Shown one piece after another: positions 2,405-37,662 of a DNA stretch of 64,000 nucleotides. Position 1 is the stretch's first letter. Every line of letters starts with the position of its first letter. The position numbers and the translations under genes are program-made. The notes beneath the pieces are model-generated. The model did no database searches. It saw only the letters and a program-made list of their open reading frames with translations, and was not told the DNA's origin. The DNA comes from Candidatus Dojkabacteria bacterium. GTDB lineage: Bacteria > Patescibacteriota > Dojkabacteria > JAOAGR01. The stretch lies in assembly GCA_026415655.1 (NCBI GenBank), contig JAOAGR010000002.1, positions 64,094 to 128,093 of the forward strand. The letters are read 5' to 3'.

Positions 2405-2481
2405 TGGCACGCCCGGAGAGATTCGAACTCCCGACCCCTTGTTCCGAAGACAAGTGCTCTAATCCGCTGAGCTACGGGCGC
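2405..2481 (-). tRNA. tRNA-Arg (anticodon TCG), CCA encoded
   Basis: Reverse complement is GCGCCCGTAGCTCAGCGGATTAGAGCACTTGTCTTCGGAACAAGGGGTCGGGAGTTCGAATCTCTCCGGGCGTGCCA. It forms a cloverleaf with a 7-bp acceptor stem (one GU pair), D-stem GCTC/GAGC, anticodon stem CTTGT/ACAAG, loop CTTCGGA (anticodon UCG) and T-loop TTCGAAT. Confidence 0.85.
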
Positions 2482-3540: not shown

Positions 3541-3582
3541 AGTGTGATAATTATAATTCTAAAAATATATTTTTACGATACC

Positions 3583-18207: not shown

Positions 18208-19305
18208 ATGGAGTTGATGGAAGAATCTAAAAAGATTGATTTAACTGATGCACAATTAAGCATTTTAAACTTAAATGATGTAATAAATTACATTTTAGGC
18301 AAAAAAGATTACATTATTAATTATGAACGTAATTTGATATCTAAATCAGAAGAAGATGTAGAAAGAGAATTAAGTTTGTTAGAGTCTTTAAGCTATTTAC
18401 ACAATGAATTTTCACATTTAAGAGATAAAACTGTCGTTATTATACCGCCAAAATATGAGCTTTGGGTTTATCTCTGTTTCTCTTTTGTTTTGTTATTTAG
18501 TGGTCTAAAAGTTGTATTTGTATATCACGATTGGGCTTCAGAAGTGATAAAAGGAATTTTTATTGCTGTTGGTGATAAAAACGTAATTTTTAACAATCTC
18601 CAATATGTTCACATCGACAATGTCAAAGATCAAAGTTGGTCTGATCATATAATCTTAAACTTTTACGATGATATTGATAACATAAATAAGAATGTTCCTA
18701 ATTTCTCCACAGGGGTAATATGTCATGATGTAGATTTAGATTATACAATAAATTATGTTTTATCTAGTGTTAAATATTTTGCAGGATTATCAAAAAGTAG
18801 TTTAAAAAGGCTGATTGTCAATTCTAGTATTTATGATGAATTTTTATCTAGAATGAGATCTAAATTCAATCTGCTTACTGGTAGTGTAAAGTCTAAAGTT
18901 ATTTCAAAAAATTTTAAGGATACTATTAATGAATTATATTCAAGTGCAATAGCTGATGGCGCAGATATACTTATAGGAGGAAATATCTACTCGGATGATT
19001 TAGAGATGACAGTATTTACTGATGTAAATATGGATATGCGGATCTATCAAAAAGATTTCTTTGGACCGTTTTTATTGATATTAAAAACAGAAAGCACAGA
19101 CTCTGATATCGAATCACTACTTAGTTTACAACCATCAGATGGTATTCTTCTTTTTACCAAAGATACTTGTAGTTTTGTAGATAATTTACCCGATCAACAA
19201 AACAAGTATAAATTCCTAAAAAGACCAAATAAATTTGATCTGCCATTACATGATCTTTTAGATGCCTATCCTTCTTTGGAATATGCTCTGAAACTTATTT
19301 CTTGA
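18208..19305 (+). CDS. Divergent aldehyde-dehydrogenase-superfamily-like protein (possibly non-catalytic)
   Basis: 'GADILIGG', 'EMTVFTDVNMDMRIYQKDFFGP' and 'ILKTESTDSDIE' resemble the ALDH C-terminal half (GA.ll.GG; PTV..dv...m.i..eEiFGPV). The protein is only 365 aa and I do not see the canonical Cys/Glu catalytic context. Confidence 0.4.
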   Translation: MELMEESKKIDLTDAQLSILNLNDVINYILGKKDYIINYERNLISKSEEDVERELSLLESLSYLHNEFSHLRDKTVVIIPPKYELWVYLCFSFVLLFSGLKVVFVYHDWASEVIKGIFIAVGDKNVIFNNLQYVHIDNVKDQSWSDHIILNFYDDIDNINKNVPNFSTGVICHDVDLDYTINYVLSSVKYFAGLSKSSLKRLIVNSSIYDEFLSRMRSKFNLLTGSVKSKVISKNFKDTINELYSSAIADGADILIGGNIYSDDLEMTVFTDVNMDMRIYQKDFFGPFLLILKTESTDSDIESLLSLQPSDGILLFTKDTCSFVDNLPDQQNKYKFLKRPNKFDLPLHDLLDAYPSLEYALKLIS

Positions 19306-22637: not shown

Positions 22638-23867
22638 ATGAGAATAAAATCCGTCAAAGCTAGACAAATACTAAATTCAAAAGGTCATCCTACACTTGAA
22701 GTCGAGATATCGACTAATAGATATACAGCATATTCATCTGTACCTACTGTATCGTCTAAAAGCAAGTATGAATATGTGGATATATATGATCATGATGTGC
22801 TCAAATTTGATGGTGATACACTTTCAGTAGTTGTAAGGAATATAGAAACGGTTGTTGCAAATGAATTGAAAGGTAAAAATGTACTGGATCAGGAGAGTAT
22901 AGATAATTTACTTTTGGATATAGATGCTACATATGATAGAAGCAAACTGGGTATAAGTGCTATTACATCAATATCTCAATGTGTAGCGAAACTTGGTGCG
23001 TTAGAATCAGAGATGCCTCTTTATAAATATATACGCGTTTTGTACGAGTTTGGTGATGAAAGTGTGATAAAACTTCATTCTGAATATAATATGCCATTGC
23101 CTGTTATCACTATACTCAAAAGCGGTGCTCATAACAGACAAAATAGTCTGCCTTTTCAGGAGATAATGCTTCTACCACGTAGTGATTTTCGTTATAGTGA
23201 AATAATTGATGTCTATAATGCTCTTAGAAGTCTTGATCTTATTGATAAACCTAAGTCATTTCTTGAACTACTGGATAGCGTTAATAAATTTATCAAAAAG
23301 TCAAAGTATAGATTTTATTTTGGGATAGATTTTAGCGCTTCTAGATATAAAGACACTGATACTGGCGAGTACATCCTACCAAATTTTTACTCAAAAGGTG
23401 AATTTTATAGAGCTGATACAAAAAAGATGGTGAAGCTTTATAAAGATTTGTTAGGTCGTTATGAGGCATTAGTTTTTTTGGAGGATGTATTTGATGAAGA
23501 TGATTTTGCATCGTGGAAAGAGACCCATAATCTGATAGAGTATAATCCGTCAGCGGTACAAATAGTCTCAGATGACCTAACAGCAGGCAATATAGAAAGA
23601 CTAGAAAAGGTTGGTATATTAGAGGTTGCTAATAATATAGTGCTGAAGCCAACACAGGTAGGTACAGTAACCGAAATGATAAGATTTGCATCGCGAGTGA
23701 AAAGATATAATCTTGGTCTCACAGTATCTTATCGAAGTGGAGAAACAGAGGATACATTTATATCAGATTTAGCGGTAGGAGTAGGAGCGGAGTTTATAAG
23801 GGTAGGATCTTATATAGGAAGTGAGTGTAATAGTAAAATAAATAGATTGTTGCAGATGGATGTATAA
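22638..23867 (+). CDS. eno: Enolase-superfamily protein, a divergent enolase homolog
   Basis: 'IKSVKARQILNSKGHPTLEVEI' resembles (ARE)ILDSRGNPTVEV. 'IEDVFDEDDFASW', 'VSDDLTAGN', 'NNIVLKPTQVGTVTE' and 'SYRSGETEDTFISDLAVG' match the enolase core. Tyr replaces the catalytic His of SHRSGETED and Arg the Lys of 'IKTG'. Confidence 0.75.
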   Translation: MRIKSVKARQILNSKGHPTLEVEISTNRYTAYSSVPTVSSKSKYEYVDIYDHDVLKFDGDTLSVVVRNIETVVANELKGKNVLDQESIDNLLLDIDATYDRSKLGISAITSISQCVAKLGALESEMPLYKYIRVLYEFGDESVIKLHSEYNMPLPVITILKSGAHNRQNSLPFQEIMLLPRSDFRYSEIIDVYNALRSLDLIDKPKSFLELLDSVNKFIKKSKYRFYFGIDFSASRYKDTDTGEYILPNFYSKGEFYRADTKKMVKLYKDLLGRYEALVFLEDVFDEDDFASWKETHNLIEYNPSAVQIVSDDLTAGNIERLEKVGILEVANNIVLKPTQVGTVTEMIRFASRVKRYNLGLTVSYRSGETEDTFISDLAVGVGAEFIRVGSYIGSECNSKINRLLQMDV

Positions 23868-24405
23868 GTTCTATTAACTTGAACTAACTCATTCATGGAT
23901 ACAAAAGAAGAACCATTCTGAAAAGACTAAACAAGCAGATATATACAATGGTATGCAAGTACTAGTAATACAATCGAATACAAGATGAGACAATCGACAG
24001 AATAACAGATACAAAAGAGATCCAAAACATATGTATGTTATTTTACTTTGTTTCTTAATATTTATATGAATCTATTTTGCTGTTTGTCCATTTTTTATGG
24101 AAACTGAACAAAGTACATTTTAAGCGTTTTGTTATGAAAGGTGCTAGTTATAAAGAACTTATCTTTAGGGTGAATATAAATCACACTTTGGCATTTAACA
24201 TGAGTATGTTAATTTAGTATTTAGTCTTTTTGTAGGGAATTTGTTGGAATAGTTAAAATAGATATCCTGAACCTCTATGGGTTGTATAAATATTGAGATA
24301 CAATTATACCTTATAAAGATTAATATATAAAGTATATAATGTCTATGCTATTTACGTACATATTAGGATTGACATATTGATAATCTTTGATATAATTTAT
24401 GAGTT

Positions 24406-24771
24406 ATGGGATTATCGAATTGCCTAATCCCAAGAAATATAATTAAATCATTACTTACTGTTGCATGCGTAGGTGTTTTATCCTTAAGTGGATGTGGTGG
24501 TCCTGACATGTCTAAGCCAAATGGTCCACAAAATAATGGTGGTGTTCAGCGACCTGTACCTACTCTGACTGCAGACGAAATAATTCGAATGTTAGAAACA
24601 GATCCCACATTTGCAGAGCGTGTTCTATGTGAGGTTGATAAAAAGCAGTCAAATGTCCTACATTGTAAGGATCCAAAGACTAATACCGAATTTACTGTGG
24701 TGGGGTTGTATGCTGGCGAGAATGGGCGCGTGGGACCGATAGACTTTAAACCATCAACACCAGGTCGGTAA
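24406..24771 (+). CDS. Small lipoprotein, hypothetical
   Basis: 121 aa. Lipobox 'LSLSGCGG'. Local GC is raised relative to the flanks. Confidence 0.5.
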   Translation: MGLSNCLIPRNIIKSLLTVACVGVLSLSGCGGPDMSKPNGPQNNGGVQRPVPTLTADEIIRMLETDPTFAERVLCEVDKKQSNVLHCKDPKTNTEFTVVGLYAGENGRVGPIDFKPSTPGR

Positions 24772-25093
24772 TAAAATATATAGATAGTATTACCTTTTTA
24801 ATTTTTATTTGATAAAATTTATTTGTTTTCTTAGTATGTTGATATAAGTATGATTTTGTTAAACATTAAATACTTAAATGAATTTAATATTTGATATATA
24901 AGAAGCAGAATCTTAAAATAGTTACAAATTAATTTTTGCACATATTTTGTCAGAATTACATTTTTTGTGTGGTGCAAATAAGCATGGATTTGTATACATA
25001 TAAGACCGACAAACACCTTTATATTAAAAGTAGAGATACTTATCTCATGGCATAAGAATATTTAATTCTTATATAATTGTACTATAACAAATT

Positions 25094-25405
25094 GTGGTAT
25101 CATATCGGCGTACCGAAAAAGTTATTCAACATTTTTCTATTGCAGCATTGTTTCTTTTATTATCGGCATGTGGTGGTATGAATGAACAAAATAGTAGTAA
25201 TAGGGCTGTTGTGGTGGATACAAAAAGTTCAATAGCGACGGAGTGCGAAACAGTTTATCAGGGTGGACAGAGGTGTTACGATGTATGTTGCCCAATGGTA
25301 ATAAGGTTAATTATACACTTTGGGTTACTCAAGGTCACAGTACTGGTAAATAATATATATTTTTGTTATTTTAGAAGGAATATACTCAATTTTACAGAGA
25401 GTTGA
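25094..25405 (+). CDS. Small putative lipoprotein, hypothetical
   Basis: 103 aa. 'LFLLLSACGG' lipobox-like signal. Cys-rich (CETVYQGGQRCYDVCCP). Confidence 0.4.
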   Translation: MVSYRRTEKVIQHFSIAALFLLLSACGGMNEQNSSNRAVVVDTKSSIATECETVYQGGQRCYDVCCPMVIRLIIHFGLLKVTVLVNNIYFCYFRRNILNFTES

Positions 25406-25524
25406 TGCAGTTATATGTTAGTACTGAGGTATTACATACAATTACGATAGAAAATCATTATAAATTTGATACATTACACGTAAATTATTGACGGAATTAT
25501 GTATAGAATGTAAAATTCCTAATT

Positions 25525-25923
25525 ATGCTTATTAAAAAGGTAAACAAGATAAATTTAAGAAGAAATGTTATTATAATTAGTTTTATTTCTCTTTTTTTGG
25601 GTATTTCCATAATCAGTCTATTGAATAATAACTCCCAGACATTAGCTATGATGTCAAATCCGGTTGATAATAGAAAGCCTATTCCATCACCTACACATAC
25701 GTCAAGACCATCACCTACACCCACTCCAACGTCTAAGCCAACCCCGACATTTAGACCGAATGTTGTAAAACCTACTATTGTAAAGCCCACAACCGCAAGG
25801 CCTACGCCTAAACCCTCGCCAAGACCGACGCGTAAACCTTACCGTACGAGTGATATATTTATGGATACTAAAGATGCAAAGATTGCGAAAATCACTGTAA
25901 ATAATACAAATATTGTAATATAG
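25525..25923 (+). CDS. Secreted Pro/Thr-rich low-complexity protein
   Basis: 132 aa. N-terminal signal/anchor followed by 'PSPTHTSRPSPTPTPTSKPTPTFRPNVVKPTIVKPTTARPTPKPSPRPTRKP'. The opposite-strand ORFs here are artefacts of the GC-rich repeat. Confidence 0.5.
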   Translation: MLIKKVNKINLRRNVIIISFISLFLGISIISLLNNNSQTLAMMSNPVDNRKPIPSPTHTSRPSPTPTPTSKPTPTFRPNVVKPTIVKPTTARPTPKPSPRPTRKPYRTSDIFMDTKDAKIAKITVNNTNIVI

Positions 25924-26391
25924 TTTTATATAACAATTTTCTTGTTTTGATAACATTAATAATAATTTTGTAATTAGTTAAGTTTTAAAGATTTATCGGG
26001 AGCTTTTGTGCAGATAGTGTACAAATAGTAAATTATAGATTCACAAGTAGAGAATCAATATGTGTTATTAGCAGCGTAAATAGGTACACATTTAGTGATA
26101 AAAATTTTTATCTTTGTCTATATAGAGTATATTTTGTTACATAATCTTCTTTTTATTTGTTATTTTGAGAGAAATGAAAAATAGTCCAAATGATAAAGTC
26201 GTGAGAATTCATATAAGAAAATATTTTCTAAATCATGTTGTTATTTGTATTCAATCTAATAATTTATTACATTTTTTAGGTTGACAATGCTAGAAAAATA
26301 CGTAATATAAAATTCCCATTTGATTTTTTTCAGATGTTTATTTTTATTAATTTTTATTTTACTAGATGTAGTGAAATTTAAGACAATATAT

Positions 26392-27495
26392 TCATGTTAT
26401 ATACGGAAGTAAGAAGTTAATTATACCCTGTACACTAACAAAAATAATCACAAATGCAAATGTATATTTGAGTATATCAAATATATCTTTTGGCAGTTTT
26501 GATATATATCCTGTTGCGATGCCATAAAAGCTTATGATTGGCACCGTACCTAAAATAAATGATAATAGTATCAGTGTACTTTCTATGAAATTTGCCTTTT
26601 GTATAGCTTCTAGTTGGGCTGTTAGACTAAATGCGCATGGTATAAATAATGTTGATAATCCAAGAGAAAATGATTCTAGATTGAATTTTTTTAAAATATT
26701 GTTTGTCTTTATTTGTATTTGAGATAAGTTTATATTTGGCAAGCTTATATTTTTTGATATTTTTGAAGTCAAACTAAAATCGATTAATTTGAAAGAAAAA
26801 AGATTTAATACATCAAGGCTCAATAAAATCATGATGATGTAGACAGCAATTGAGACAATATTATAAATATTTATATCTAATCTTATAATACCGCCAAAAT
26901 ACCCAAATATTATCCCTATTATTATTGCACCTAGTATACGCGCCAGATTAAAATTGATAATTGTGTATATTGTTTGTGTTTTTGGTTTTTCGGAGATTTG
27001 TTTGTTTATAAGACTTATCAAAACCCCACCTACTGTTGATGAACATGTAGATATTGATGCGATGATACCTAAGACAAAAAATCCTAAGTAACCAAGTTGA
27101 GTCACATCAAAGTTTAATGACCCACTTATGAACTTATTCAAAAAATGTATCAATAACCCAATAAATAATGCCAAAAAAAAGCTTATTATATAAATAATAT
27201 TTTTTTTGTTTAAAGATTTATCCGGCTTATTTGTCAGTATTTTGTATCCATTTGTGGCTATCTCTTCATTTAGTTTGTCGATTATCTCATCTATAGATCT
27301 TTTAGTATTTGAAATTTTTATTTTTAATTCACCGGTTTTATAATTTAACCTTTCTGTTTCTATATCATCTTGGGATTTTAGTTTTCTTTTTATGAAACTT
27401 TCACAAGCGTGACAATGCATACCCTCAACATATAAAGTAAATTCCTGATTTTCCTTTGAGTCTTTTTGATCAGATTTACGTTTTTTCCTATTCAT
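26392..27495 (-). CDS. Heavy-metal-associated (HMA) domain fused to a polytopic membrane domain (DsbD_2/TauE-like?)
   Basis: 'LYVEGMHCHACESFIKRKL' is a GMxCxxC metal-binding motif. It is followed by at least 6 TM helices with Cys in 'ISTCSSTVGG' and 'FIPCAF'. Confidence 0.5.
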   Translation of the reverse strand: MNRKKRKSDQKDSKENQEFTLYVEGMHCHACESFIKRKLKSQDDIETERLNYKTGELKIKISNTKRSIDEIIDKLNEEIATNGYKILTNKPDKSLNKKNIIYIISFFLALFIGLLIHFLNKFISGSLNFDVTQLGYLGFFVLGIIASISTCSSTVGGVLISLINKQISEKPKTQTIYTIINFNLARILGAIIIGIIFGYFGGIIRLDINIYNIVSIAVYIIMILLSLDVLNLFSFKLIDFSLTSKISKNISLPNINLSQIQIKTNNILKKFNLESFSLGLSTLFIPCAFSLTAQLEAIQKANFIESTLILLSFILGTVPIISFYGIATGYISKLPKDIFDILKYTFAFVIIFVSVQGIINFLLPYIT

Positions 27496-27513
27496 AGGAT
27501 AAATTTACAATTT

Positions 27514-28242
27514 TTATATCCATCCTAATATTATACGGTTTACTACATCTTGTAAACTGCGCATAATAGGAATTACTTTTCTAAAGTGCATTCTTTTAGG
27601 TCCTAGTACAGCGGCAACAATTCTTTCCTTTGCCATTAGTGTGAGTTCGGTGTAGACTATAGAACACTCATAAAGCATTTTTTCATTGGATTCTTCGCCG
27701 ATAATTACTTTGACCCTTGAATCGGTATAATTACGGTTAAACACATTAGAAAGCATATTGTAATCATCAAAACTTATTAATATATTTTTGAAAACATCAC
27801 GATCACTAAATTCTTGGTAGTCAATAAGATTATAAAGTCCAGCATAATGTATACCTTCTTCGGATAGTACGATTGATGCGTATTTTGTAATGTCTGCAAG
27901 TACCGCACATAATGCTCTCATCAATTTTTTATTGTTTATCTTATGTTTTTGAAGCTCTCGGGCAATTAAAATCTCCGTCATATAATCAATTGGTTCTTCC
28001 AGCATCAGATCAGAAATATATTTTCTATATCCAAGAACTGTTGGTATGCGCCCAGATGAAGAGTGGGACTTAGAAATATATCCTTCATCAGCTAGTTTTA
28101 CCATTTCATAGCGTATTGTGGCTGGTGATACATCAAGATTGTATTTGTACGAGATAAGATTAGATCCAACCGGTGTGGCGGTTTCTATAAATTCGGTTAC
28201 TATTGCATAAAGAATGGCTTTTTGTCTCTCAGTAAGATCCAT
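27514..28242 (-). CDS. hrcA: Heat-inducible transcription repressor HrcA
   Basis: 'LTERQKAILYAIVTEFIETATPVGSNLISYKYNLDVSPATIRYEMVKLADEGYISKSHSSSGRIPT' is the canonical HrcA winged-helix N-terminus. 242 aa (short form). Confidence 0.8.
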   Translation of the reverse strand: MDLTERQKAILYAIVTEFIETATPVGSNLISYKYNLDVSPATIRYEMVKLADEGYISKSHSSSGRIPTVLGYRKYISDLMLEEPIDYMTEILIARELQKHKINNKKLMRALCAVLADITKYASIVLSEEGIHYAGLYNLIDYQEFSDRDVFKNILISFDDYNMLSNVFNRNYTDSRVKVIIGEESNEKMLYECSIVYTELTLMAKERIVAAVLGPKRMHFRKVIPIMRSLQDVVNRIILGWI

Positions 28243-28251
28243 AATTTTATT

Positions 28252-28278
28252 TTAGCAGAGTAAAAAAGTAGATGCTAG
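28252..28278 (-). promoter_or_regulatory. CIRCE-like inverted repeat 10-36 bp upstream of the hrcA start (candidate HrcA operator)
   Basis: TTAGCAGAG-N9-AGATGCTAG compared with the CIRCE consensus TTAGCACTC-N9-GAGTGCTAA. It shares the TTAGCA...TGCTA core and the 9-nt spacer. Confidence 0.35.
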
Positions 28279-28303
28279 TTATTATCACTATCTGTGTATT
28301 TGA

Positions 28304-30868
28304 TTATTCTTGTAGTAAATTTTTGATTCTATGCAATACCTCCCAAGCTTGGATTGGTGATAATTTTTCAATTTCTAGATTTGTTATAATTTCTTTAAGT
28401 TCTTCATGTTTTTTGTCTTTTTCTTCCGAAAAATCATTATCTATTGTATCTATTAGTGATAGCGGGGTTGGTGCTAATAAATTTTCTTGCTTTTCTAATT
28501 TCTTTAAGATTTTTTCTGCCTTTTTTATTACATCCTCAGGTATTCCAGCTATTTTGGCTACATGTATTCCATAGCTTTTATCCGCCTTACCGGTAGCAAC
28601 CTCATGCATAAAAATTACTTCATTATTTCGCTCTATTACTTTTACATAAAGGTTTTTGACACTTGTATATTTGTTCGCTAGTTCTGTTAGTTCATGATAG
28701 TGTGTCGCAAATAAAACTATTCCTTTTTTTTCTATTAATTTCTCAGAAATGCCCCATGCAAGACTCATACCATCAAATGTTGCAGTACCACGTCCAACTT
28801 CGTCCAATATAATCAATGATTTTTTTGATGAGTTTTTAATTACGTTAGCTGTTTCTAGCATTTCTACAAGAAATGTACTTTGTCCCTCGGCGAGATTGTC
28901 TGATGCACCAATTCTCGAAAATATACCGTCTATAATTCCAATTGTTGCTTCTGATGCAGGCACATAAGATCCTATATGAGCAAGAATAACAATGATTGCT
29001 ACCATACGGATATATGTTGATTTACCACCCATATTTGGTCCGGTAATAAGAAAAAATCTATCTTTTTCGTTTGCGTAAAAAGAGTTTTTTACAAATATTT
29101 TATTTTCTCTGCGCAAAGTATACTCAACAACAGGATGCCAGCCGTTGATTATCTCTATTCTGTTTTCTTCTGTAATGAGTGGTAAAGTCCAATCATTTTC
29201 TAATGATAATAATGCTAAAGCAGAATATACGTCTATTAATCCTAGTTCATTACTAATATCTTGTAAGTCACCAATATAATTTTGTAATTCAGCTACTAAA
29301 TTATCAAATATCTTATTTTCTATTTCTTTTATTTTCTCATCGGCGGTCAGAAGCTTGTTTTCATATTCTTTGAGTTCCGGTGTTATGAATCTCTCAGCAT
29401 TCACAAGTGTTTGTTTGCGGACAAAATAGGCAGGTACGTTCTCAGATTTTTGTTTTGGTATCTCTATATAATATCCAAATACCTTGTTATACCTTACCTT
29501 TAAACTAGTAATCTGTGTTTTATTAATAAGTTCTTTTTCATAGTTATATAACCAATTACTGTCATTATTTTTTATTTCATAAAGCTCATCTAATTCGGCA
29601 TCTATGCTTGTTTTTATGCATCTATTATCTCTTATATTTTGAGGAGGTTCATCAATAATTGTATTAGATATTTTAATAATTATTTCTTTGAGATTGCTCA
29701 AAATTTTATTAATTCGTTCAATACCAGATTGATATAAAAACTCATTATTCTGAACTATATATTTAACTACTTTGTAAGCTTCAATACATGATATCTCAAT
29801 AGATTTTACTTCTCTGGGATTTATGTTTCTCATCCCAATCTTTGATGCTAGACGGGATAGATTTGAGGTTTGTTTTAATATATTCTGTATCTGTTTTATT
29901 CCATCGATTCCTAATGTTCTAAAATCTGTGATATCTCTTTGTCTTTTTTTCATTTGTTTAATATCTTGTAACGGCCTTTTAAGCCATTCTGTAAGCATTT
30001 TACTACCGTTGGTTGTGACTGTTCTATCTATTATCGTAAAAAGTGATAATCCTTTTTGCGAAAAAGATTCTAGTATTTCTAAATTTTTAAGACATATACT
30101 ATCAAGATGCATGTATTCTTTGAGTTTTATTTCCTCAATATTAGTGATGTGTATAAGTGCAGAGCGTTGTGTTGTATATAGATATTCAAGTAGTGTAATG
30201 ACAACTTTTTGTGTTTGTGAATCAAGTTTTTTTATTTTTTCCAAGATGCTTGTATTTACAAATTTACTTACATCGTGATTTTTACCTATATGTCCGAAAA
30301 TCCTATCAGAAAAACTGATTATATATTTTTGAATAAAATTTTTAATTTTATCATTTTCTTCGCAGATAAGTATCTCTTGTGGATTAATGCGATATATGGA
30401 TTCTTTGCATTCTTCATAACTTTGACAATAAACAAGAAAAATAGAATTTTGTGTAATATCAGTATACGCTAATAAGCAATCTTTTTCATTAACAACATCT
30501 AGAACTAGGATATAAGAATTAGTTTTTTTATCTTCTAATAAAATATCTGTTCCGGGGGTAACTATCCTTGTAACTTCACGCTTTACTACACCTTTAGCCT
30601 GTGCTGGATTTTCCATCTGTTCCACAACAACCACTCTTTTATTTGCTTTTGTCAATTTTGGTAGATAATTGTCCAAAGTGTGATAGGGGATACCAGCCAT
30701 TGGGATAGATTTTTCTTTATCCCTTGCTGTTAGTGTGATATTCAAGATCTTTGATACTTCATGGGCATCTTCATAGAAAGTCTCATAAAAATCACCCATT
30801 CTAAAAAGGATAATACAATCAGGATATTCATTCTTTATTGATAGATATTGTTGCATCGCTGGAGTCAT
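28304..30868 (-). CDS. mutS: DNA mismatch repair protein MutS
   Basis: 854 aa. 'MTPAMQQYLSIKNEYPDCIILFRMGDFYETFYEDA' (mismatch-binding domain) and 'ITGPNMGGKSTYIRMVAII' (Walker A). Confidence 0.9.
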   Translation of the reverse strand: MTPAMQQYLSIKNEYPDCIILFRMGDFYETFYEDAHEVSKILNITLTARDKEKSIPMAGIPYHTLDNYLPKLTKANKRVVVVEQMENPAQAKGVVKREVTRIVTPGTDILLEDKKTNSYILVLDVVNEKDCLLAYTDITQNSIFLVYCQSYEECKESIYRINPQEILICEENDKIKNFIQKYIISFSDRIFGHIGKNHDVSKFVNTSILEKIKKLDSQTQKVVITLLEYLYTTQRSALIHITNIEEIKLKEYMHLDSICLKNLEILESFSQKGLSLFTIIDRTVTTNGSKMLTEWLKRPLQDIKQMKKRQRDITDFRTLGIDGIKQIQNILKQTSNLSRLASKIGMRNINPREVKSIEISCIEAYKVVKYIVQNNEFLYQSGIERINKILSNLKEIIIKISNTIIDEPPQNIRDNRCIKTSIDAELDELYEIKNNDSNWLYNYEKELINKTQITSLKVRYNKVFGYYIEIPKQKSENVPAYFVRKQTLVNAERFITPELKEYENKLLTADEKIKEIENKIFDNLVAELQNYIGDLQDISNELGLIDVYSALALLSLENDWTLPLITEENRIEIINGWHPVVEYTLRRENKIFVKNSFYANEKDRFFLITGPNMGGKSTYIRMVAIIVILAHIGSYVPASEATIGIIDGIFSRIGASDNLAEGQSTFLVEMLETANVIKNSSKKSLIILDEVGRGTATFDGMSLAWGISEKLIEKKGIVLFATHYHELTELANKYTSVKNLYVKVIERNNEVIFMHEVATGKADKSYGIHVAKIAGIPEDVIKKAEKILKKLEKQENLLAPTPLSLIDTIDNDFSEEKDKKHEELKEIITNLEIEKLSPIQAWEVLHRIKNLLQE

Positions 30869-30918
30869 ATGGTTAGATTATAAATTATGCTAGTTAAATA
30901 GTTTTATAAATTGATATA

Positions 30919-32682
30919 ATGCTTTTTATGAAAAAAGTGATAATCGGTGCTGCGTGGCCGTATGTAAACGGGGATCTTCATCCTGGGCATATTGCAGGAT
31001 ACAACTTGCCTGCCGATATTTTTACAAGATATCAAAGACTTATCGGCAACGAAGTAATGCTTGTTTCCGGTGCGGATTGTTATGGTACTCCCATTACTTT
31101 ACAAGCAGACAAAGAAGGAACCACTCCAGAGCAAATCGTACAAAAATACGCACCTAGGACGAAAGAGCTTTTATGTGATATTTACAAAACATCTTATGAT
31201 ATTTTTACTCAAACTCATACAAAAATACATAATTTAATAGTACAAATATTTTTCTTAAATTTATTGAAAAATGGATACATAACTCGCAAATTTACAAGAC
31301 AATATTATTCTGAAAGGGATAACCGTTTTTATCCTGATAGATACGTAGAAGGCGAATGTATGTATTGTCATGCTAAGGATCAAAGAGCAGATCAGTGCGA
31401 GTCCTGTGGCCGTACCCTCATTCCCGGTGAGCTTGTAAATCCAAAGGCTAAACTTACAGGCTCAGAGGTTGCATTAAAAGAAACTGAGCATTATTTTTTT
31501 AGTTTATCTTCGTTTAAAGAAAGATTAAAAAATTATTTATATTCAAAAAAAGATATATGGCGTGAGTGGGTATGGAAAGAGACAGAGAAATGGATAAATG
31601 AACTTGAAGACAGATCCCTCACGCGTGATTTGGATTGGGGAGTAGAAATACCTGTTGAATATATGGATGAAAAAGATATTGTCGATCATGTCGAGAATAA
31701 ACGACTTTATGTGTGGTTTGATGCTGTCATAGGATATTTTAGTGCATCTTTTGTTTTGAAATTTGGTGATAAATTTGATTCTATCAATGACCTGATGCCT
31801 GTATTTAACGAGTTTGTATCAAAATATTGGGATAGTGATGATATTGATCTTGTTCATTATCTTTTTGTGGGTCAAGATAATCTCTTTTTTCACACAATTT
31901 GGTGGCCTGCTCTTTTAATGGGGCAAGAGATAAATTTGAAGTTACCAGACAATGTGGTTGTAAATTACTTTCTAAATTTAGAAGGACAAAAATTCTCTAA
32001 AAGTAGGGGAATATATATAAATGCTCGTGAATTGGTGAATACTTATGGGTTGGATGCTGTAAGGTATTATCTTATTCGTATCAATCCAGAAAATTCATCT
32101 ACTCACTGGTACTGGGATGATTTCAAGGACCGTATAAACAACGAATTGGTCGCCACACTTGGTAACTTTGTACATCGAACATTAGTTTTTTATGCTAAAT
32201 ACTTAGGTAACTCAATTTCATTAGAAAATGTGCAAGTAGATTATGAAGTGAAAAGCATTATAAATTCACTTTTTGTCGATTTTTACGGCAATGACGGCTT
32301 TGATGGATTGATTGGCAAAGCAAGGTTTAAAGATGCTTTAGATAAGCTTATGGATCTTGCTAGATTTGGAAACTTGTTTTTTGATAGATGTGCTCCCTGG
32401 AAAAGTGTAAAAGAAGATACAAAAAGCTGTGCCAATGCTATATATAATTGTTTGCATTTAATTTTGGCTATATCTTTATTGATCTCCATATTTTTACCAG
32501 ATGCTGGTTCGAAATTGGCGAAAATATTCTATGTCGATTTCTTATACGAAAGATATAGTAATAGACTTTTTCAAATGTATGATGACGATTATCTTGACAC
32601 TTTAATTAGAGAAAATTTATTGACTATTCCATCTGATTTGGCGCCGCTATTCAACAAGATAGATAAAATAATAAAAGTATGA
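30919..32682 (+). CDS. metG: Methionine--tRNA ligase
   Basis: 'PYVNGDLHPGHIAGY' (HIGH-type), Zn knuckle 'CMYCHAKDQRADQCESCG', 'KFSKSRG' (KMSKS). 587 aa. Confidence 0.9.
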   Translation: MLFMKKVIIGAAWPYVNGDLHPGHIAGYNLPADIFTRYQRLIGNEVMLVSGADCYGTPITLQADKEGTTPEQIVQKYAPRTKELLCDIYKTSYDIFTQTHTKIHNLIVQIFFLNLLKNGYITRKFTRQYYSERDNRFYPDRYVEGECMYCHAKDQRADQCESCGRTLIPGELVNPKAKLTGSEVALKETEHYFFSLSSFKERLKNYLYSKKDIWREWVWKETEKWINELEDRSLTRDLDWGVEIPVEYMDEKDIVDHVENKRLYVWFDAVIGYFSASFVLKFGDKFDSINDLMPVFNEFVSKYWDSDDIDLVHYLFVGQDNLFFHTIWWPALLMGQEINLKLPDNVVVNYFLNLEGQKFSKSRGIYINARELVNTYGLDAVRYYLIRINPENSSTHWYWDDFKDRINNELVATLGNFVHRTLVFYAKYLGNSISLENVQVDYEVKSIINSLFVDFYGNDGFDGLIGKARFKDALDKLMDLARFGNLFFDRCAPWKSVKEDTKSCANAIYNCLHLILAISLLISIFLPDAGSKLAKIFYVDFLYERYSNRLFQMYDDDYLDTLIRENLLTIPSDLAPLFNKIDKIIKV

Positions 32683-33617
32683 ATCTAATAGATATTTTTT
32701 TACCTCTGGCTTCTATATTTTTTGTATTTATTTTGGGGATTGGTATTATTTCAGTTGTTAATAAAATCACTTCTCTTGTGAATATATCTTCTTTTTTGTT
32801 TTCTTATTTTGTTTTGGGCTGTTTAACTACTATGGCCGAGATTTCAGTTGGTATTCATTCGATAATTGATGATAAAGATAGTGTATTTGTGGGCAATTTA
32901 GCAGGTGGTATTATTTTCTTAATAACTTTTTTAATTCCTTTGATAGGGATATTTTCCGGAGAGATCAAAATCTATAAAAGTGTAAAAAAAGATAATTTGG
33001 TGTACCTTTTAGGTTATCTATTGTTGCCATTCTTACTCATTTTGGATAATGAGGTAAACATATTAGATGCAATATTTCTAATAATAAGTTATATAGTGAT
33101 GTCTTTGAAATTATCGCGTGAAGACATAGACTCAGAAAAGATTAATTATATTTTTAGTTCTAATTTAATAAAAAAACTTATCTTGTGGACAATTGTCTTG
33201 TTTATTTTAATACTAGGTCTTATGTATGTCAGCAATTATGTTGTAGATCTAATTGTTAAATGGGCGAATGGAATTGGTAAGTCGTATTTTGATTTTAGCT
33301 TTTTATTGCTGCCTGTTATCACAAATATGCCAGAGATGGTCATTGCTATAGTCTCCCTTTTAAAAAAACAAAAGTCAGTTGCAATAGGTAATTATTTGGG
33401 ATCTTCTACATTTAACGCTTTTTTGATTGGAATACTATCTATGTTTGCGGGTCAGGTCTTTTTAAATACAAATCCTTTTTTAATTTTCATATTTTTCCTC
33501 TTCATGCTGATCTTAATCTATTTTTTTATGGATTCTGAAAATAAGTTAACAAGAAAAGAGAGTTTTATATTACTTATTTTTTCATTAATATTTATCTGTA
33601 TTGAGATATTCATCTGA
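32679..33617 (+). CDS. CaCA-family cation/Ca2+ antiporter-like membrane protein (YrbG-like)
   Basis: Two internal repeats: 'GCLTTMAEISVGI' and 'PVITNMPEMVIAIVSLLKKQKSVAIGNYLGSSTFNAFLIG', compared with the GTSLPEL...AIGNVIGSNIFNILLVLG alpha-repeats. Confidence 0.5.
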   Translation: MNLIDIFLPLASIFFVFILGIGIISVVNKITSLVNISSFLFSYFVLGCLTTMAEISVGIHSIIDDKDSVFVGNLAGGIIFLITFLIPLIGIFSGEIKIYKSVKKDNLVYLLGYLLLPFLLILDNEVNILDAIFLIISYIVMSLKLSREDIDSEKINYIFSSNLIKKLILWTIVLFILILGLMYVSNYVVDLIVKWANGIGKSYFDFSFLLLPVITNMPEMVIAIVSLLKKQKSVAIGNYLGSSTFNAFLIGILSMFAGQVFLNTNPFLIFIFFLFMLILIYFFMDSENKLTRKESFILLIFSLIFICIEIFI

Positions 33618-33624
33618 CGCATAA

Positions 33625-34041
33625 ATGATAAACAGAAATCTCTTAAAAACAATAACCAAGAAGATATATATATATTATGCATTAGGTATTGTTATCATCA
33701 TGATTTTCGTCTTTGTAATTTGGTTTTTTATTAGTGGTGGAAATATTAATTTTTTGGGATCAAATAATGTCAAAGAATTAAAAGAGATTATTGTATATAT
33801 AGATAAAAGACGTATGAAGGTAAATCATGATGTGTTTAGGGCGAAGGTTTTATACAATCTTATATTTATTAAATCAGAAGATGTTAATGACTGTGATAAC
33901 ATAGAAATACCGGAGATATTTTTTAGCCTAAGGCTGGTAGACAACCGTACAGAAATACCTTTTGTACATATGAGAGAGGGGGATATAACTATTCGTTGTT
34001 TCGAGAATAATAAGAAAACAACTACTATTAGATTAGTATAG
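33625..34041 (+). CDS. Hypothetical membrane-anchored protein
   Basis: 138 aa with an N-terminal TM segment. No motif. Confidence 0.4.
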   Translation: MINRNLLKTITKKIYIYYALGIVIIMIFVFVIWFFISGGNINFLGSNNVKELKEIIVYIDKRRMKVNHDVFRAKVLYNLIFIKSEDVNDCDNIEIPEIFFSLRLVDNRTEIPFVHMREGDITIRCFENNKKTTTIRLV

Positions 34042-34079
34042 ATTTTGAATAATTCTTCAAATTTTAATAACATGAACTA

Positions 34080-35297
34080 ATGGCAAAGATCGTAGATCTA
34101 AAGGCAAGGCAGATTCTTGGTACTAATGGAAATTATTGTATTGCTTGCGAAGTGATGCTTGATACTGGCGAAAAGAGTTTTATCCAAATGCCGGTCCTTC
34201 ATGACCATAACTTTATATCATGTTATGATGTTCCGAATTCTAAATCAAATATTATTAAAAGTGTATTAAAACAAGTTTTTTATATTAACAATAATATTAA
34301 GAAAATCTTGGTGGATCGCAAAATTGAAGATCTTGAAATTGTTGATGAGATCTTGTCACGTCTTGATAATGATCAGAGATGTTCTAACTTAGGTATAAAT
34401 ACTATTTCTGCAGTGTCCTGGTCATTATTTTTAGCAGCAGCCAAATCAAAGAATGTAGATTTGTTTAAATACATCTCCGAGTTCTGTGGTTTTGATAATA
34501 TTACTTATACTTTTCCATATGTTGTTTTTGATATATTTACGGATCCAGAAAAAAGAGTAATTCCATGGAGCGGAATTGGTATAGTGCCTGTTTTGAAAAC
34601 ACGTTTCAAGGATATGATTGATTTTGTTATCAGACTCTATGAACAGATTATAAAATCGAAAAAATACATATATCATATTAACTATGATGGGGGAATATTG
34701 CCAGATACTGACAATTTAGAAGGATTGTTAGAGGAGATTATTACAGCGGGAGAGAAGATCGGTTTTTACAATAAAAAAGATTTCTTTATAGTATTGGATG
34801 CTGGTTTAAATCGCAATCAAAACAATAAATATTTCATCAAATACAATTCGGATGATATTACAAGACTAGAATTAATTAAATATTATGAAAATTTAATAAA
34901 AAAATACTATTTAGGATCAATTATTAATCCGATTAATACTCATGACAAGGAAGGAATATCTACCATAATAGATGTATTGAGTAAAGATGTTCAGATAATA
35001 TTTGATTATCATTATTTTGACGATAAAGACCAGATATTTAGTTTTGATGATAATGTGACTGTCGGTATTCGTTTGGAAAATTTCTTAACAGCTACTTCCA
35101 TGCTAAATTTTTTATCAAAATTAAAAAATAAAAGTATTCCTTTTATTTTGAGGCATTCTTTGTTTGAGACGATCGATCATTTTTTGGCTGATATAGCTAT
35201 TGGCACAAGATCGATTCAGATAGATTTTGGTGGACTTTTTGGGGGACAAAATGTAGCAAAATACAACAGACTTTTAACTATAGAAGAACTGTCTTGA
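34080..35297 (+). CDS. Second enolase-superfamily paralog, strongly degenerate (probable pseudo-enzyme)
   Basis: 'IVDLKARQILGTNGNYCIACEV' aligns with the enolase N-terminus. 'LRHSLFETIDHFLADIAIG' aligns with SHRSGETEDTFIADLAVG but with key residues replaced. 'NVAKYNRLLTIEEL' resembles AKYNQLLRIEEEL. Confidence 0.55.
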   Translation: MAKIVDLKARQILGTNGNYCIACEVMLDTGEKSFIQMPVLHDHNFISCYDVPNSKSNIIKSVLKQVFYINNNIKKILVDRKIEDLEIVDEILSRLDNDQRCSNLGINTISAVSWSLFLAAAKSKNVDLFKYISEFCGFDNITYTFPYVVFDIFTDPEKRVIPWSGIGIVPVLKTRFKDMIDFVIRLYEQIIKSKKYIYHINYDGGILPDTDNLEGLLEEIITAGEKIGFYNKKDFFIVLDAGLNRNQNNKYFIKYNSDDITRLELIKYYENLIKKYYLGSIINPINTHDKEGISTIIDVLSKDVQIIFDYHYFDDKDQIFSFDDNVTVGIRLENFLTATSMLNFLSKLKNKSIPFILRHSLFETIDHFLADIAIGTRSIQIDFGGLFGGQNVAKYNRLLTIEELS

Positions 35298-35349: not shown

Positions 35350-37662
35350 GTGAGTCTTGCAAAAAAACAAATTGATAGTTTAAAAAAATACTTTCGTGCT
35401 GTAAATTATTTGTCTGCCATTCAAATATATCTTAAAAGTAATTTTTTACTTGAACGCAATCTAACTTTTGATGATATCAAACCAAGACTTTTGGGACATT
35501 GGGGAACATGTCCAGGTATAAATTTTCTTTATACTAATATTAACTTTTTTATAAAAAGAACTTCGCAAAAAACTGTTCTTCTGATAGGACCGGGGCACGG
35601 ACTCCCAGCTATACAAGCAAATGTTTATTTGGATGGTACTTTAGGGCAAAAATATCCGCAAGCGCAACACAATTTAGATGGTATTGAATTTATATCCAAA
35701 CTATTTTCCTGGCCTTATGGATTTCCAAGTCATGCAAGTCCCATGACTCCTGGAGTTTTATTAGAAGGCGGTGAACTTGGTTATGCACTAAGTATGGCTT
35801 TTGGGGTTACAAAATTTAAAAAGGATCTTCTTGTTATACCTTTTATAGGTGATGGAGAAGCGGAAACAGGACCAACAGCCACTTCTTGGTTTTTAAATAG
35901 ATTCTGGAATCCACTCGAGGATGGATTCATCATTCCGATAGTTCATGTAAATGGATATAAAATCTCAGGACCAACTATATATGGTCGCATGTCACTACTT
36001 GAATTAAAAGATCTTTTTTATGGATATGGCTACGATCCGATTTTTGTAGAATACAACGAATTTGAGGATATATTTGTAAAGATGCAGCAGGCACTCAGCA
36101 GATCTTATGAAATATCGCTCTCCATTCGATCTAAATATGCACAAGGATCTATATCTATTCCTAGGATTCCTGTGATCATCTTAAAAACTCCCAAAGGTTG
36201 GACAGGTATTAAATCTTATGAGAATGTTAAAATTGAAGATAATTATCTTTCTCATCAAGTTCCACTTTCAAATGCAAAATCAGATGAAAATCAATTGAGA
36301 GCTTTAGAAGATTGGTTAAGAAGTTATCATTTCGAGGAAGTATTTAATGAAGAATACGGATTTTCGAAGGATATTTTAGATATATTGCCCAGTGATGGAT
36401 TAAAAATTGCCGATGTTGTAGAAAATGAACTTCAACCTATGGATCTGATATCCGTTACCAATCCACAAGACCTGGCCAATTATCCAATTCATGCTCACCA
36501 AAGCTCGATGAAAGGCATTGGAAAGTATTTAAAAGAATTGATCAGATCAAATCCTAAAAGTTTTGCGGTATTTTCACCAGATGAAACTTACTCTAATAAA
36601 ATAAATGAGATTTTTCTCGTAACCAAAAGAGTAAATTTATGGCCGTTAAAATCTTCAGATGAAGATTTTGCTACTTCTGGAAATGTCTTTGAGATGTTGT
36701 CGGAGCACGCATTGTTTGGAATGTTAAAAGGATTTGTTATGTCAGGCAGATCTGGAGTATTTGTATCATATGAGGCTTTTGTGCAGATTATCACTAGCAT
36801 GGTAGATCAATACATTAAGTTCCTTAAACAATCAAGAAAGGTACATTGGAGGGCAAAACTAAATGCTTTAAACATAATTCTCACTTCGTCAGGATGGAGG
36901 CAAGACCATAATGGTTTTACACATCAAAATCCTGGATTTTTAAGTAATATTATTGAAAAACAAGATGTATCTGTACGAATATATTTTCCTGTAGATATAA
37001 ACACATCTGTTATTTTATTGGACAAGGTTTTGTATCAAAAGAATAGAATAAATGTCATATGTGTAGGAAAAACAGAGGAACCGGTATATTTTGATGCCCA
37101 TTCAGCAAGAACAGCGTTAGATGATGGCTACTGTATTTTTGATGATGAAATAAATACATCACCAGATATTGTGATTGTTGGTATTGGTGATTACATGGCA
37201 AAAGAGGCTTGGTACGCAAGTCAGATCTGTCGTTTTGAGTTAATCAAATTTCATATAAGACTTGTCTTTGTAATAGATTTTTACAAATTTCAAAAAATGC
37301 TAGAACTGAGTCCTAATAAGTTTAATTCTATTTTTAGAGCGAAATATTTGACAGTATGGAATTTTCACGGATATCCGCAGAGTCTAATGAAAATTTTATT
37401 TAATTCATCTGTATCATCCAATTCATATGTAAATGGATACATAGAGGTAGGATCAACGACGACACCTTTTGATATGCTCATTAGAAACAAAGTTTCGAGG
37501 TGGAATATATTTCTTCAGGTTTTGGATCGTTTATTAGATCTTGGAAAAATTTCCAAGAAACATTATAAGAAGTTGAAATTTAAATACGAAGAAAAATTTA
37601 GAAAACATAAGATATTTATTCAAAAATATGGATATGATCAAGATTGGATAAATATAGTATAA
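35350..37662 (+). CDS. xfp: Phosphoketolase (xylulose-5-P/fructose-6-P)
   Basis: 770 aa. 'LGHWGTCPGINFLYTN', 'GPGHGLPAIQANVYLDGTL' and 'EGGELGYALSMAFG' are phosphoketolase/ThDP signatures. Confidence 0.9.
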   Translation: MSLAKKQIDSLKKYFRAVNYLSAIQIYLKSNFLLERNLTFDDIKPRLLGHWGTCPGINFLYTNINFFIKRTSQKTVLLIGPGHGLPAIQANVYLDGTLGQKYPQAQHNLDGIEFISKLFSWPYGFPSHASPMTPGVLLEGGELGYALSMAFGVTKFKKDLLVIPFIGDGEAETGPTATSWFLNRFWNPLEDGFIIPIVHVNGYKISGPTIYGRMSLLELKDLFYGYGYDPIFVEYNEFEDIFVKMQQALSRSYEISLSIRSKYAQGSISIPRIPVIILKTPKGWTGIKSYENVKIEDNYLSHQVPLSNAKSDENQLRALEDWLRSYHFEEVFNEEYGFSKDILDILPSDGLKIADVVENELQPMDLISVTNPQDLANYPIHAHQSSMKGIGKYLKELIRSNPKSFAVFSPDETYSNKINEIFLVTKRVNLWPLKSSDEDFATSGNVFEMLSEHALFGMLKGFVMSGRSGVFVSYEAFVQIITSMVDQYIKFLKQSRKVHWRAKLNALNIILTSSGWRQDHNGFTHQNPGFLSNIIEKQDVSVRIYFPVDINTSVILLDKVLYQKNRINVICVGKTEEPVYFDAHSARTALDDGYCIFDDEINTSPDIVIVGIGDYMAKEAWYASQICRFELIKFHIRLVFVIDFYKFQKMLELSPNKFNSIFRAKYLTVWNFHGYPQSLMKILFNSSVSSNSYVNGYIEVGSTTTPFDMLIRNKVSRWNIFLQVLDRLLDLGKISKKHYKKLKFKYEEKFRKHKIFIQKYGYDQDWINIV

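Follow-up and report, generated by a model that had tools for sequence, protein, structure and literature searches.

Enolase is among the most conserved enzymes, and the pair Lys345/Glu211 (yeast numbering) represents its textbook mechanism. We have analyzed two genes of the enolase superfamily, referred to as copy 1 and copy 2, which are encoded on 64,000 nucleotides from a Candidatus Dojkabacteria bacterium (assembly GCA_026415655.1, contig JAOAGR010000002.1, positions 64,094 to 128,093 of the forward strand); this whole stretch is called the window. What is new is a lineage-wide enolase subfamily which is devoid of the general-acid loop (copy 1 and its relatives), together with a presumably dead bacterial-type enolase in one sublineage (copy 2).

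In canonical enolases, Lys342 (yeast Lys345) abstracts the C2 proton and Glu209 (yeast Glu211) protonates the leaving C3 hydroxyl. The catalytic Mg is bound by Asp246, Glu290, and Asp317, and the second Mg by Ser42. Arg371 and Ser372 bind the phosphate, Lys393 (yeast Lys396) contacts the carboxylate/enolate, and Glu168 and His370 (yeast His373) belong to a hydroxyl/water network. These roles follow in part a study of the enolase from M. tuberculosis (PMC10619443). Residue numbers refer to E. coli Eno (b2779; eno from NC_000913), the reference of an alignment which comprised both copies and their relatives as well as canonical enolases; residues of copy 1 itself and of the yeast enzyme are specified as such.

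The enolase active site lies within one subunit. In other subgroups of the enolase superfamily, such as mandelate racemase, muconate lactonizing enzyme, and the acid-sugar dehydratases, metal-assisted abstraction of an alpha-proton is kept while the acid/base residues move between the ends of the barrel strands, and His or Tyr is the acid/base in some of the dehydratases. The enolase subgroup is considered isofunctional. In a figure legend on the SFLD, the enolase family is the only family named from this subgroup (PMC5467563). The enolase fold also serves as a binding platform in the RNase E degradosome, in the RibD-enolase complex, and in the Csm/AcrIIIA2/enolase complexes (PDB 2fym, 5ohg, 9no2, 9no4); the enolases in these complexes are catalytically intact.

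Copy 1 combines an enolase fold with a partly rebuilt active site

Both copies are open reading frames (ORFs) with Pfam matches to Enolase_N and Enolase_C, at the positions where an earlier note on this DNA had placed two genes of the enolase superfamily (Table 1). Both have sequence matches to dozens of solved enolases and share the two-domain fold of the canonical enzyme (E. coli Eno, yeast Eno1, M. tuberculosis Rv1023) with template-modelling (TM) scores of 0.8-0.9. For copy 1, the two-domain architecture is evident from the matches to Enolase_N (2.3e-32) and Enolase_C (5.9e-38). Its AlphaFold2 (AF2) model (pLDDT 87.2, pTM 0.90) predicts an intact barrel and compares to solved enolases with TM scores of 0.82-0.89. 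By sequence, copy 1 is clearly a member of the enolase subgroup, and not of the mandelate racemase (MR) or muconate lactonizing enzyme (MLE) subgroups. Its score against the NCBIfam enolase equivalog TIGR01060 (238.2 bits, in two stretches) is below the cut-off of 300 bits.

Copy 1 shares with canonical enolases the three Mg ligands, Lys342, Gln167/Glu168, His159, and Arg371, as well as the 'RSGETED' core and, at the C-terminus, the 'NRLL' motif. As is typical for the superfamily, strands 3-5 of the barrel carry metal ligands at their ends, and the base for alpha-proton abstraction is present. The Ser42 equivalent (Ser40 of copy 1) and Ser372 are also kept. Copy 1 differs from the canonical enzyme by the missing Glu209 loop, by Tyr370, Arg393, and Gly399, by a remodelled loop 1 (SGASTG is replaced by TVSSKS), and by an 8-residue insertion. 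The deletion affects the canonical connector of ca 20 residues, from which a core of ca 9 residues (VGDEGGFAP) that carries the general acid Glu209 is absent; the AF2 model of copy 1 shows a helix (residues 186-197), a short loop, and a second helix (residues 208-221) at this site. In the canonical comparison set, which consists of E. coli Eno and 75 further canonical enolases, Glu209, Lys393, and Arg399 are found in 76/76 sequences and His370 in 75/76.

The earlier note had reported Tyr in place of the His and Arg in place of the Lys of the 'IKTG' segment. Both changes are confirmed at the codon level (Table 1), and the alignment with the 76 canonical sequences shows that they are not due to chance. 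Mapped onto the yeast positions that had been proposed for inspection, copy 1 keeps Glu168 and Lys345, while Glu211 is lost, His373 is Tyr, and Lys396 is Arg. The note had described the enolase core as nearly complete; this is correct for the Mg ligands, Lys342, and Gln167/Glu168, but the deletion of the Glu209 loop, the replacement of Arg399 by Gly, and the remodelling of loop 1 had all been missed. It had also taken the exchanged His and Lys for the general acid/base residues, which proved incorrect: the base is Lys342, which is retained, and the acid is Glu209, which is missing. The finding on copy 1 is thus more striking than originally described, and it is real and reproducible across samples and genomes.

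The copy-1 type is a closed subfamily in Dojkabacteria

A search of 5.8 billion proteins retrieved 34 clusters which are 43-100% identical to copy 1 and have a length of 406-418 aa; identity then drops to ca 35% for ordinary enolases. A search with a profile of this clade returned the same 34 clusters (535-736 bits), followed by a gulf down to 367 bits. The higher-scoring 'merc' matches P0035-37 were considered as intermediates between the clade and canonical enolases and were rejected, as they are concatenated canonical eukaryotic enolases; because the two matches just beneath the gulf are of this kind, there are no intermediates below it.

The deletion of the Glu209 loop, Tyr370, and Arg393 are common to 34/34 clade members, and Gly399 is found in all except P0029, which has Asp. 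Asp246/Glu290/Asp317, Lys342, Gln167, Glu168, and Arg371 are kept in every member, and His159 in all except P0028 (Ser) and P0031 (Thr). The Ser372 site, which is Ser in all twelve canonical sequences tabulated, is variable in the clade (H/F/Y/S/Q/L/K/N). In loop 1, G40A/V, T43K, and G44S are fixed, and the Ser42 equivalent is Ser or Thr. The clade-specific insertion contains a residue, Leu146 of copy 1, which is conserved across the clade. A comparison with the 75 canonical enolases yields as fixed differences D14N, G40A, T43K, G44S, E50D, K103R, N152T, V321A, the deletion of 206-214, H370Y, K393R, and R399G.

A replacement for the general acid was searched for among the conserved positions. 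No newly fixed Asp, Glu, or His was found across the clade, and a catalytic acid within the shortened connector could be ruled out, as position 203 is Asp or Glu in only 20/33 members. Tyr365 of copy 1 is therefore the only new potential proton donor that is fixed. It is located at the end of strand 7, which we take to be the position of the catalytic His in the MR subgroup.

Canonical enolases from all domains of life show pairwise identities of 39-100% (mean 53%), whereas those between the clade and canonical enolases are 26-38% (mean 33%). With a maximum of 38% against a canonical minimum of 39%, the clade is outside the known enolase envelope. The clade clusters are ca 45-57% identical overall.

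Matches to the clade in genome collections are from metagenome-assembled genomes (MAGs) named Candidatus Dojkabacteria, which include a complete genome of 738 kb (AP026679.1); some are from MAGs which were automatically named 'Saccharibacteria'. All available evidence places the subfamily across Dojkabacteria. Only two proteins of the clade bear names, 'enolase' (BDQ04849.1) and 'hypothetical protein' (MFW5720145.1), both from Candidatus Dojkabacteria bacterium. The annotation pipelines are split, with 'enolase' being assigned by DFAST and JGI and 'hypothetical protein' by NCBI PGAP; the latter name is consistent with the sub-threshold score against TIGR01060.

In three other Dojkabacteria contigs (354-917 kb), the copy-1-type gene is located downstream of PheS/PheT and is flanked by a small ferredoxin (Fer4_15) on one side and by signal peptidase I/RadA on the other. 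The lineage of the window is rearranged and has LytR, not the ferredoxin, upstream of copy 1. In the three other contigs, the gene has no partners in an operon that would point to a new pathway, and no copy-2-like gene was found within 10 kb of it. The copy-1 type thus behaves like a single-copy housekeeping gene.

One NCBI sequence outside the clade, P0313 (on a contig of 1,082,443 bp), has Glu209 replaced by Val, Asp208 by Ala, His159 by Gln, Asn152 by Gly, and Lys393 by Arg. As this variant is independent of the clade, the loss of the general acid together with the exchange of Lys393 to Arg may have arisen more than once.

Copy 2 is a dismantled enolase of different origin

Copy 2 retains matches to Enolase_N (9.3e-17) and Enolase_C (9.1e-20), but with 147 bits it is far below the TIGR01060 cut-off of 300 bits. 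Its AF2 model (pLDDT 86.1, pTM 0.87) has TM scores of 0.86-0.91 to enolases. The earlier note had called this copy far more eroded, and indeed 10/13 tabulated catalytic or ligand positions are changed, with only Asp246, Asp317, and His370 being kept. The Ser42 loop is gone, His159 is deleted, Gln167/Glu168 are Ser-Gly, Glu290 is Ile, Lys342 is Arg, Arg371/Ser372 are Ser-Leu, Lys393 is Asp, and Arg399 is Gly. Glu209 is replaced by Asp, with the 209 loop being present as YDGG. In LRHSLFETIDHFLADIAIG, the remnant of the SHRSGETED...DLAVG motif, the His is kept (His359 of copy 2) and the phosphate-binding Arg-Ser has become Ser-Leu. Since residues that bind the metal and the substrate are lost along with the base, a function as a canonical enolase can be ruled out for copy 2. 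We regard it as a putative pseudoenzyme, with a predicted fold that is kept, catalytic residues that are lost, and purifying selection (see below).

A HMMER profile built from three copy-2 sequences was compared to 1.84 billion representatives. Its own cluster scored 845 bits and the next match 150 bits. Copy 2 thus represents a single 50%-identity cluster, which is confined to three related genomes. Among structures in the PDB, copy 2 matches bacterial enolases with 98-114 bits and eukaryotic ones with 63-79 bits; it matches an enolase from Moranbacteria with 129 bits and copy 1 with only ca 65 bits. The insertion typical for the copy-1 clade is absent. The bacterial-leaning scores, the kept 209 loop, and the absence of the clade insertion show that copy 2 did not originate from the copy-1 type; its ancestor was a bacterial-type (canonical-type) enolase. 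A sister group was searched for but none was found, copy 2 being 25-28% identical to all other homologs. Its nearest canonical matches, from the AT-rich Dependentiae and Fonsibacter, were rejected as kin since they are probably due to compositional attraction.

The two copies had been considered as paralogs of one another. In a recent sense this does not apply: they are ca 22% identical and stem from different enolase lineages, and are thus not a pair of recent duplicates. Their separation is ancient.

Both copies show a weak match (E about 1e-11) to the Thermococcales enolase-like family NF006223 (PRK08350, 'hypothetical protein'). Membership was rejected for either copy, because the match covers only ca 70 residues of the N-terminal domain and reaches 42 bits compared to a cut-off of 624.

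Among the top matches to the copy-2 profile, 138 are full-length. At least one of the 13 positions is substituted in 63 of these, and at least six in 36, counts which are approximate as they rely on the automatic alignment of very divergent sequences. The degenerate homologs are found among P0124-P0272, outside the window. An example is P0174 (QQR53526.1, 'hypothetical protein [bacterium]'), from genomes of ca 1.09 Mb.

Both genes are maintained by purifying selection

For each of the two copies, the identical protein was recovered on 8 contigs, which stem from several independent samples. Full synteny is seen with the closest genome (GCA_964503755.1), whose proteins share 87% (copy 1) and 70% (copy 2) amino acid identity with those of the window; a third genome has copy 2 at 77%. 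By the Nei-Gojobori method, the ratio of nonsynonymous to synonymous substitution rates (dN/dS) is 0.045 for copy 1 (pN 0.08 vs. pS 0.69) and 0.07-0.12 for copy 2 (pN 0.12-0.18 vs. pS 0.57-0.74). Both are within the range of the neighbouring genes (0.013-0.16). As dS is near saturation, the dN/dS values are approximate, though pN is far below pS. Both copies are thus under purifying selection.

Signs of recent horizontal transfer were searched for by composition, but GC and GC3 of both copies are typical of the genome. Neither copy has a signal peptide or an extra domain.

That these genes are decaying pseudogenes or artefacts of assembly or sequencing might be suspected from the many canonical residues that are lost and from scores below curated thresholds for both copies. 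This is already refuted, and we attach practically no probability to it: the frames are intact and full-length, identical proteins are found in several independent samples, orthologs in related genomes have pN far below pS, and the models are confident.

Search for a further enolase and the metabolic setting

No third enolase was found by tblastn in the window, nor in ca 9 kb beyond its 3' end, which means that ca 73 kb of a genome of roughly 0.7-0.9 Mb were covered. In six related loci, no canonical enolase was found within 10 kb of the copy-1-type gene. Of 86 canonical enolases among the matches listed, none is on a contig as long as a known Dojkabacteria contig, though this is weak evidence.

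For a complete WS6 genome (Wrighton et al.), the sole energy route that was reconstructed leads from phosphoglycerate (PGA), supplied by form II/III RuBisCO, via pyruvate to acetate (PMC5113843). The enolase step is therefore needed, as part of the only route inferred to yield ATP. In 2020, Jaffe et al. described Dojkabacteria as 'extremely minimal' and reported enolase to be patchily distributed in the Candidate Phyla Radiation (CPR), with enolase being scored by TIGR01060 at 215 bits (PMC7304191, Table S2). At this threshold copy 1 passes (238 bits) and copy 2 fails (147 bits). We infer, which the authors of that study did not, that the 'Eno' of CPR reconstructions is the copy-1 subfamily. 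Our literature search did not retrieve any study that deals with changes at the catalytic residues of CPR enolases.

Genomic neighbourhood

Copy 2 is preceded by a gene for a hypothetical protein, which has no Pfam or NCBIfam match, and is followed after ca 40-50 bp by a phosphoketolase gene; this order is conserved in all genomes that have copy 2. No terminator-like site was found between MetRS and the end of the phosphoketolase gene (30.9-37.7 kb). As promoter and terminator scans yielded no more sites than shuffled sequence, they carry little weight beyond that missing terminator. Copy 2 is probably co-transcribed with the adjacent phosphoketolase gene, and this adjacency is the sole functional lead for copy 2. 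The phosphoketolase is itself below every NCBIfam phosphoketolase cut-off (best 753 vs. 777 bits). Sub-threshold scores are therefore common in this lineage; residue losses were checked for the enolases only.

Table 1. Coordinates of copy 1, copy 2, their diagnostic residues, and adjacent genes. Positions refer to the window unless a contig handle is given.
Feature	Position	Strand	Basis
Copy 1, enolase-family protein, 409 aa	22638..23867	+	ORF list, Pfam, NCBIfam, AF2
Copy 1 loop 1, residues 36-45 PTVSSKSKYE, for canonical PSGASTGxxE	22743..22772	+	Signature analysis vs. 75 canonical enolases
Clade-specific insertion of ca 8 residues, DESVIKLH, residues 140-147, before barrel strand 1	23055..23078	+	Alignments
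Gln174-Glu175 (E. coli Gln167-Glu168), kept	23157..23162	+	Invariant in clade
Shortened alpha1-alpha2 connector, residues 198-207 SLDLIDKPKS, without Glu209	23229..23258	+	Gap in 34/34 clade members
Asp231 (E. coli Asp246), Mg ligand, kept	23328..23330	+	Invariant in clade
Glu282 (E. coli Glu290), Mg ligand, kept	23481..23483	+	Invariant in clade
Asp312 (E. coli Asp317), Mg ligand, kept	23571..23573	+	Invariant in clade
Lys337 (E. coli Lys342, yeast Lys345), C2-proton-abstracting base, kept	23646..23648	+	Invariant in clade
Tyr365 (TAT) at E. coli His370 / yeast His373, within SYRSGETEDTFISDLAVG	23730..23732	+	Codon check; 34/34 clade members
Arg388 (AGG), within IRVG, at E. coli Lys393 / yeast Lys396	23799..23801	+	Codon check; 34/34 clade members
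Gly394 at invariant canonical Arg399	23817..23819	+	Gly in 97% of clade
Hypothetical protein, 138 aa, directly upstream of copy 2 (38-bp gap)	33625..34041	+	Synteny in three genomes
Copy 2, enolase-fold protein, 405 aa	34080..35297	+	ORF list, Pfam, AF2
Copy 2 remnant of SHRSGETED...DLAVG motif, LRHSLFETIDHFLADIAIG	35148..35204	+	Codon/motif check
Phosphoketolase (XFP), directly downstream of copy 2 (52-bp gap)	35350..37662	+	Pfam XFP_N, XFP, XFP_C
Fer4_15 ferredoxin, ca 95 aa, preceding copy-1-type gene	L004 9449-9742, L032 9331-9627, L033 9380-9667		

The remaining content of the window is that of a typical small CPR genome and includes MurT/GatD, LytR, HrcA, MutS, MetRS, two ClpB genes, GatB, YidC, MurG, polynucleotide phosphorylase (PNPase), and pilins of the type IV secretion system (T4SS) type. 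A scan with Rfam detected only three tRNAs. Between copy 1 and the HMA/DsbD gene (24000-26300) are small ORFs which vary among related genomes. These include a lipoprotein-like ORF (24406-24771), upstream of which the sigma-70 consensus is matched at 12/12 positions and the -10 element is extended by TG (24369-24396), and a Pro/Thr-rich ORF of 132 aa (25525-25923).

A protein of 963 aa (48654-51545, minus strand) was considered as a phosphoenolpyruvate (PEP) synthase or pyruvate phosphate dikinase (PPDK) but is not recognizable as such, having only a weak ATP-grasp match to PPDK_N. This weak segment of the PPDK_N/PEP-synthase type is at residues ca 129-263, and the protein is conserved in sibling contigs. 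A short homolog of aldehyde dehydrogenase (ALDH; 365 aa, 18208-19305, plus strand) matches only profile positions ca 240-390 of ALDH families; it is conserved in GCA_964503755.1 with a dN/dS of 0.135. A tyrosine recombinase/integrase (1399-2271, minus strand) adjoins tRNA-Arg(TCG) (2405-2481, minus strand), and the two may mark the edge of an integrated element. Three genes for RimK-like ATP-grasp ligases are present in the 64 kb (2644-3540, minus strand; 3544-4521 and 44169-44939, plus strand). PNPase is followed by three consecutive T4SS-pilin-like genes, one at 63042-63482 (plus strand) and two past the window end (L034 12115-13817).

Interpretation of the two copies

The explanation that we prefer, and to which we give about an even chance, is that copy 1 is the working enolase of the lineage with a rewired second half-reaction, and that copy 2 is a retained pseudoenzyme. 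Copy 1 would then be the housekeeping enolase acting on 2-phosphoglycerate (2-PGA) and PEP. The conserved half of its site is the machinery for metal-assisted abstraction of the C2 proton, and the rebuilt half is where the C3 hydroxyl, carboxylate, and phosphate are contacted. Protonation of the leaving hydroxyl might have passed to Glu168, with assistance from Tyr365 and/or water, and Arg388 might stand in for Lys393 at the carboxylate. Copy 2 would have lost its enolase function and be kept as a pseudoenzyme, likely co-expressed with phosphoketolase. The minimal genomes which need this step, the single-copy gene in its housekeeping context, the retention of Arg371 and (except in two members) His159, and the conservative replacement of Lys393 by Arg speak in favour of the enolase assignment. 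Furthermore, the ancestor of copy 2 was free to lose catalysis, which implies that the cell had another source of enolase activity. The earlier note had left open whether one copy acts as an enolase by means of a non-canonical catalytic set or whether both copies have been recruited to other roles. As copy 1 keeps the metal site and the Lys and is of a lineage-wide, single-copy housekeeping type, the non-canonical set fits copy 1, and the regulatory or structural pseudoenzyme which the note had also named fits copy 2; a recruitment of both copies elsewhere is not favoured.

Several points weigh against copy 1 being an enolase. Glu211 of the yeast enzyme is regarded as indispensable, and Poyner et al. 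are said to have found in 1996 that its E211Q variant has a kcat lowered ca 10^5-fold. In the clade, no invariant acidic residue replaces Glu209, and the free variation at Ser372 suggests an altered substrate pose. The score of copy 1 falls short of the NCBI cut-off for equivalogs, and 'hypothetical protein' is the name that PGAP gives to a clade member. A canonical enolase may lie in the rest of the genome, beyond the ca 73 kb covered. Lastly, conserved enolization combined with a changed specificity half is the classic signature of a new reaction in the enolase superfamily. It is possible, though we are inclined to doubt it, that proteins of the copy-1 type indeed catalyze a changed reaction, enolizing a metal-bound carboxylate via Lys342 with another substrate or product. 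Examples would be proton exchange, epimerization, or beta-elimination of a better leaving group which does not require a general acid. The pocket, enlarged by the loop deletion, would fit a new substrate, and the true enolase would be elsewhere or absent. What is conserved in copy 1 is exactly the partial reaction shared by the superfamily; what is altered is located around the C3 hydroxyl, carboxylate, and phosphate (Glu209 loop, H370Y, K393R, R399G, Ser372, loop 1). The missing replacement acid, the position outside the canonical identity envelope, and the score below the equivalog cut-off fit as well. However, these are minimal genomes with few metabolic genes, and the gene has a single-copy housekeeping context in which operon partners for a new pathway are missing. 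Every clade member keeps the phosphate-binding Arg371 and all but two keep His159, the exchange of Lys393 to Arg is conservative, and a bacterial-type enolase in the same genome was allowed to die. Only tentatively would we entertain that the Dojkabacteria 'enolase' is not an enolase; it would then be the first protein of this subgroup to catalyze another reaction, with the enolization half-site being conserved and the specificity half-site rebuilt.

Binding or scaffolding roles for both copies (as moonlighting proteins, in an RNA-decay complex, or on the surface), with PEP or pyruvate obtained from elsewhere or from the host, appear improbable. Enolases are recurrent binding partners, and the PDB matches include the complexes with RNase E, RibD, and Csm/AcrIIIA2; CPR organisms are host-dependent, the patchy distribution of enolase in the CPR (PMC7304191) would fit, and many degenerate homologs exist in metagenomes. 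Nevertheless, the Mg ligands, Lys342, Glu168, and Gln167 of copy 1 are invariant across 34 divergent clusters, and such an invariant site in clusters that are ca 45-57% identical is hard to explain without catalysis or binding of metal or substrate. In addition, a signal peptide and extra domains are lacking in both copies. The PNPase of the window (60928-63039) is 26 kb away. Copy 2 resembles the trypanosomatid AdoMetDC prozyme and the paralog of DHS in that the fold is kept, catalytic residues are lost, purifying selection is seen, and a homolog with a catalytic set is present (PMC5201418, PMC3663545). These cases, in which a dead paralog accompanies an impaired enzyme, set a precedent for a heterodimer of copies 1 and 2, with the dead subunit activating or regulating the impaired one. 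Enolases are obligate dimers, copy 1 is conserved alongside copy 2 wherever the latter occurs (three genomes), and copy 2 holds what copy 1 has lost, namely the 209 loop (with Asp) and His370. We nonetheless consider this arrangement quite unlikely. The conserved neighbour of copy 2 is phosphoketolase and not copy 1, and in nearly all members of the clade the copy-1 type is unaccompanied by copy 2 (34 clusters vs. one). A distance of 10 kb separates the two genes, which do not share a transcript, and with the active site being confined to one subunit, residues could not be donated across the interface.

Significance

For annotation, the copy-1 subfamily poses a problem, as the thresholds of hidden Markov models (HMMs) split on it. 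The search with the copy-2 profile exposes a large and diverse set of metagenomic enolase homologs with dismantled active sites, mostly unnamed and undescribed. With respect to copy 1, a whole minimal lineage at the level of a candidate phylum has fixed a version of enolase in which the Glu211 loop is missing and His373 and Lys396 have given way to Tyr and Arg. Should copy 1 still make PEP, the second half-reaction can run on another set of residues, and the lineage represents a natural experiment on the need for Glu211. If it makes no PEP, metabolic reconstructions of Dojkabacteria, which count the copy-1 type as enolase, are wrong at their central step. With copy 2 being dead, there would then be no conversion of 2-PGA to PEP, and the model of ATP generation from RuBisCO via PGA and pyruvate to acetate would need revision.

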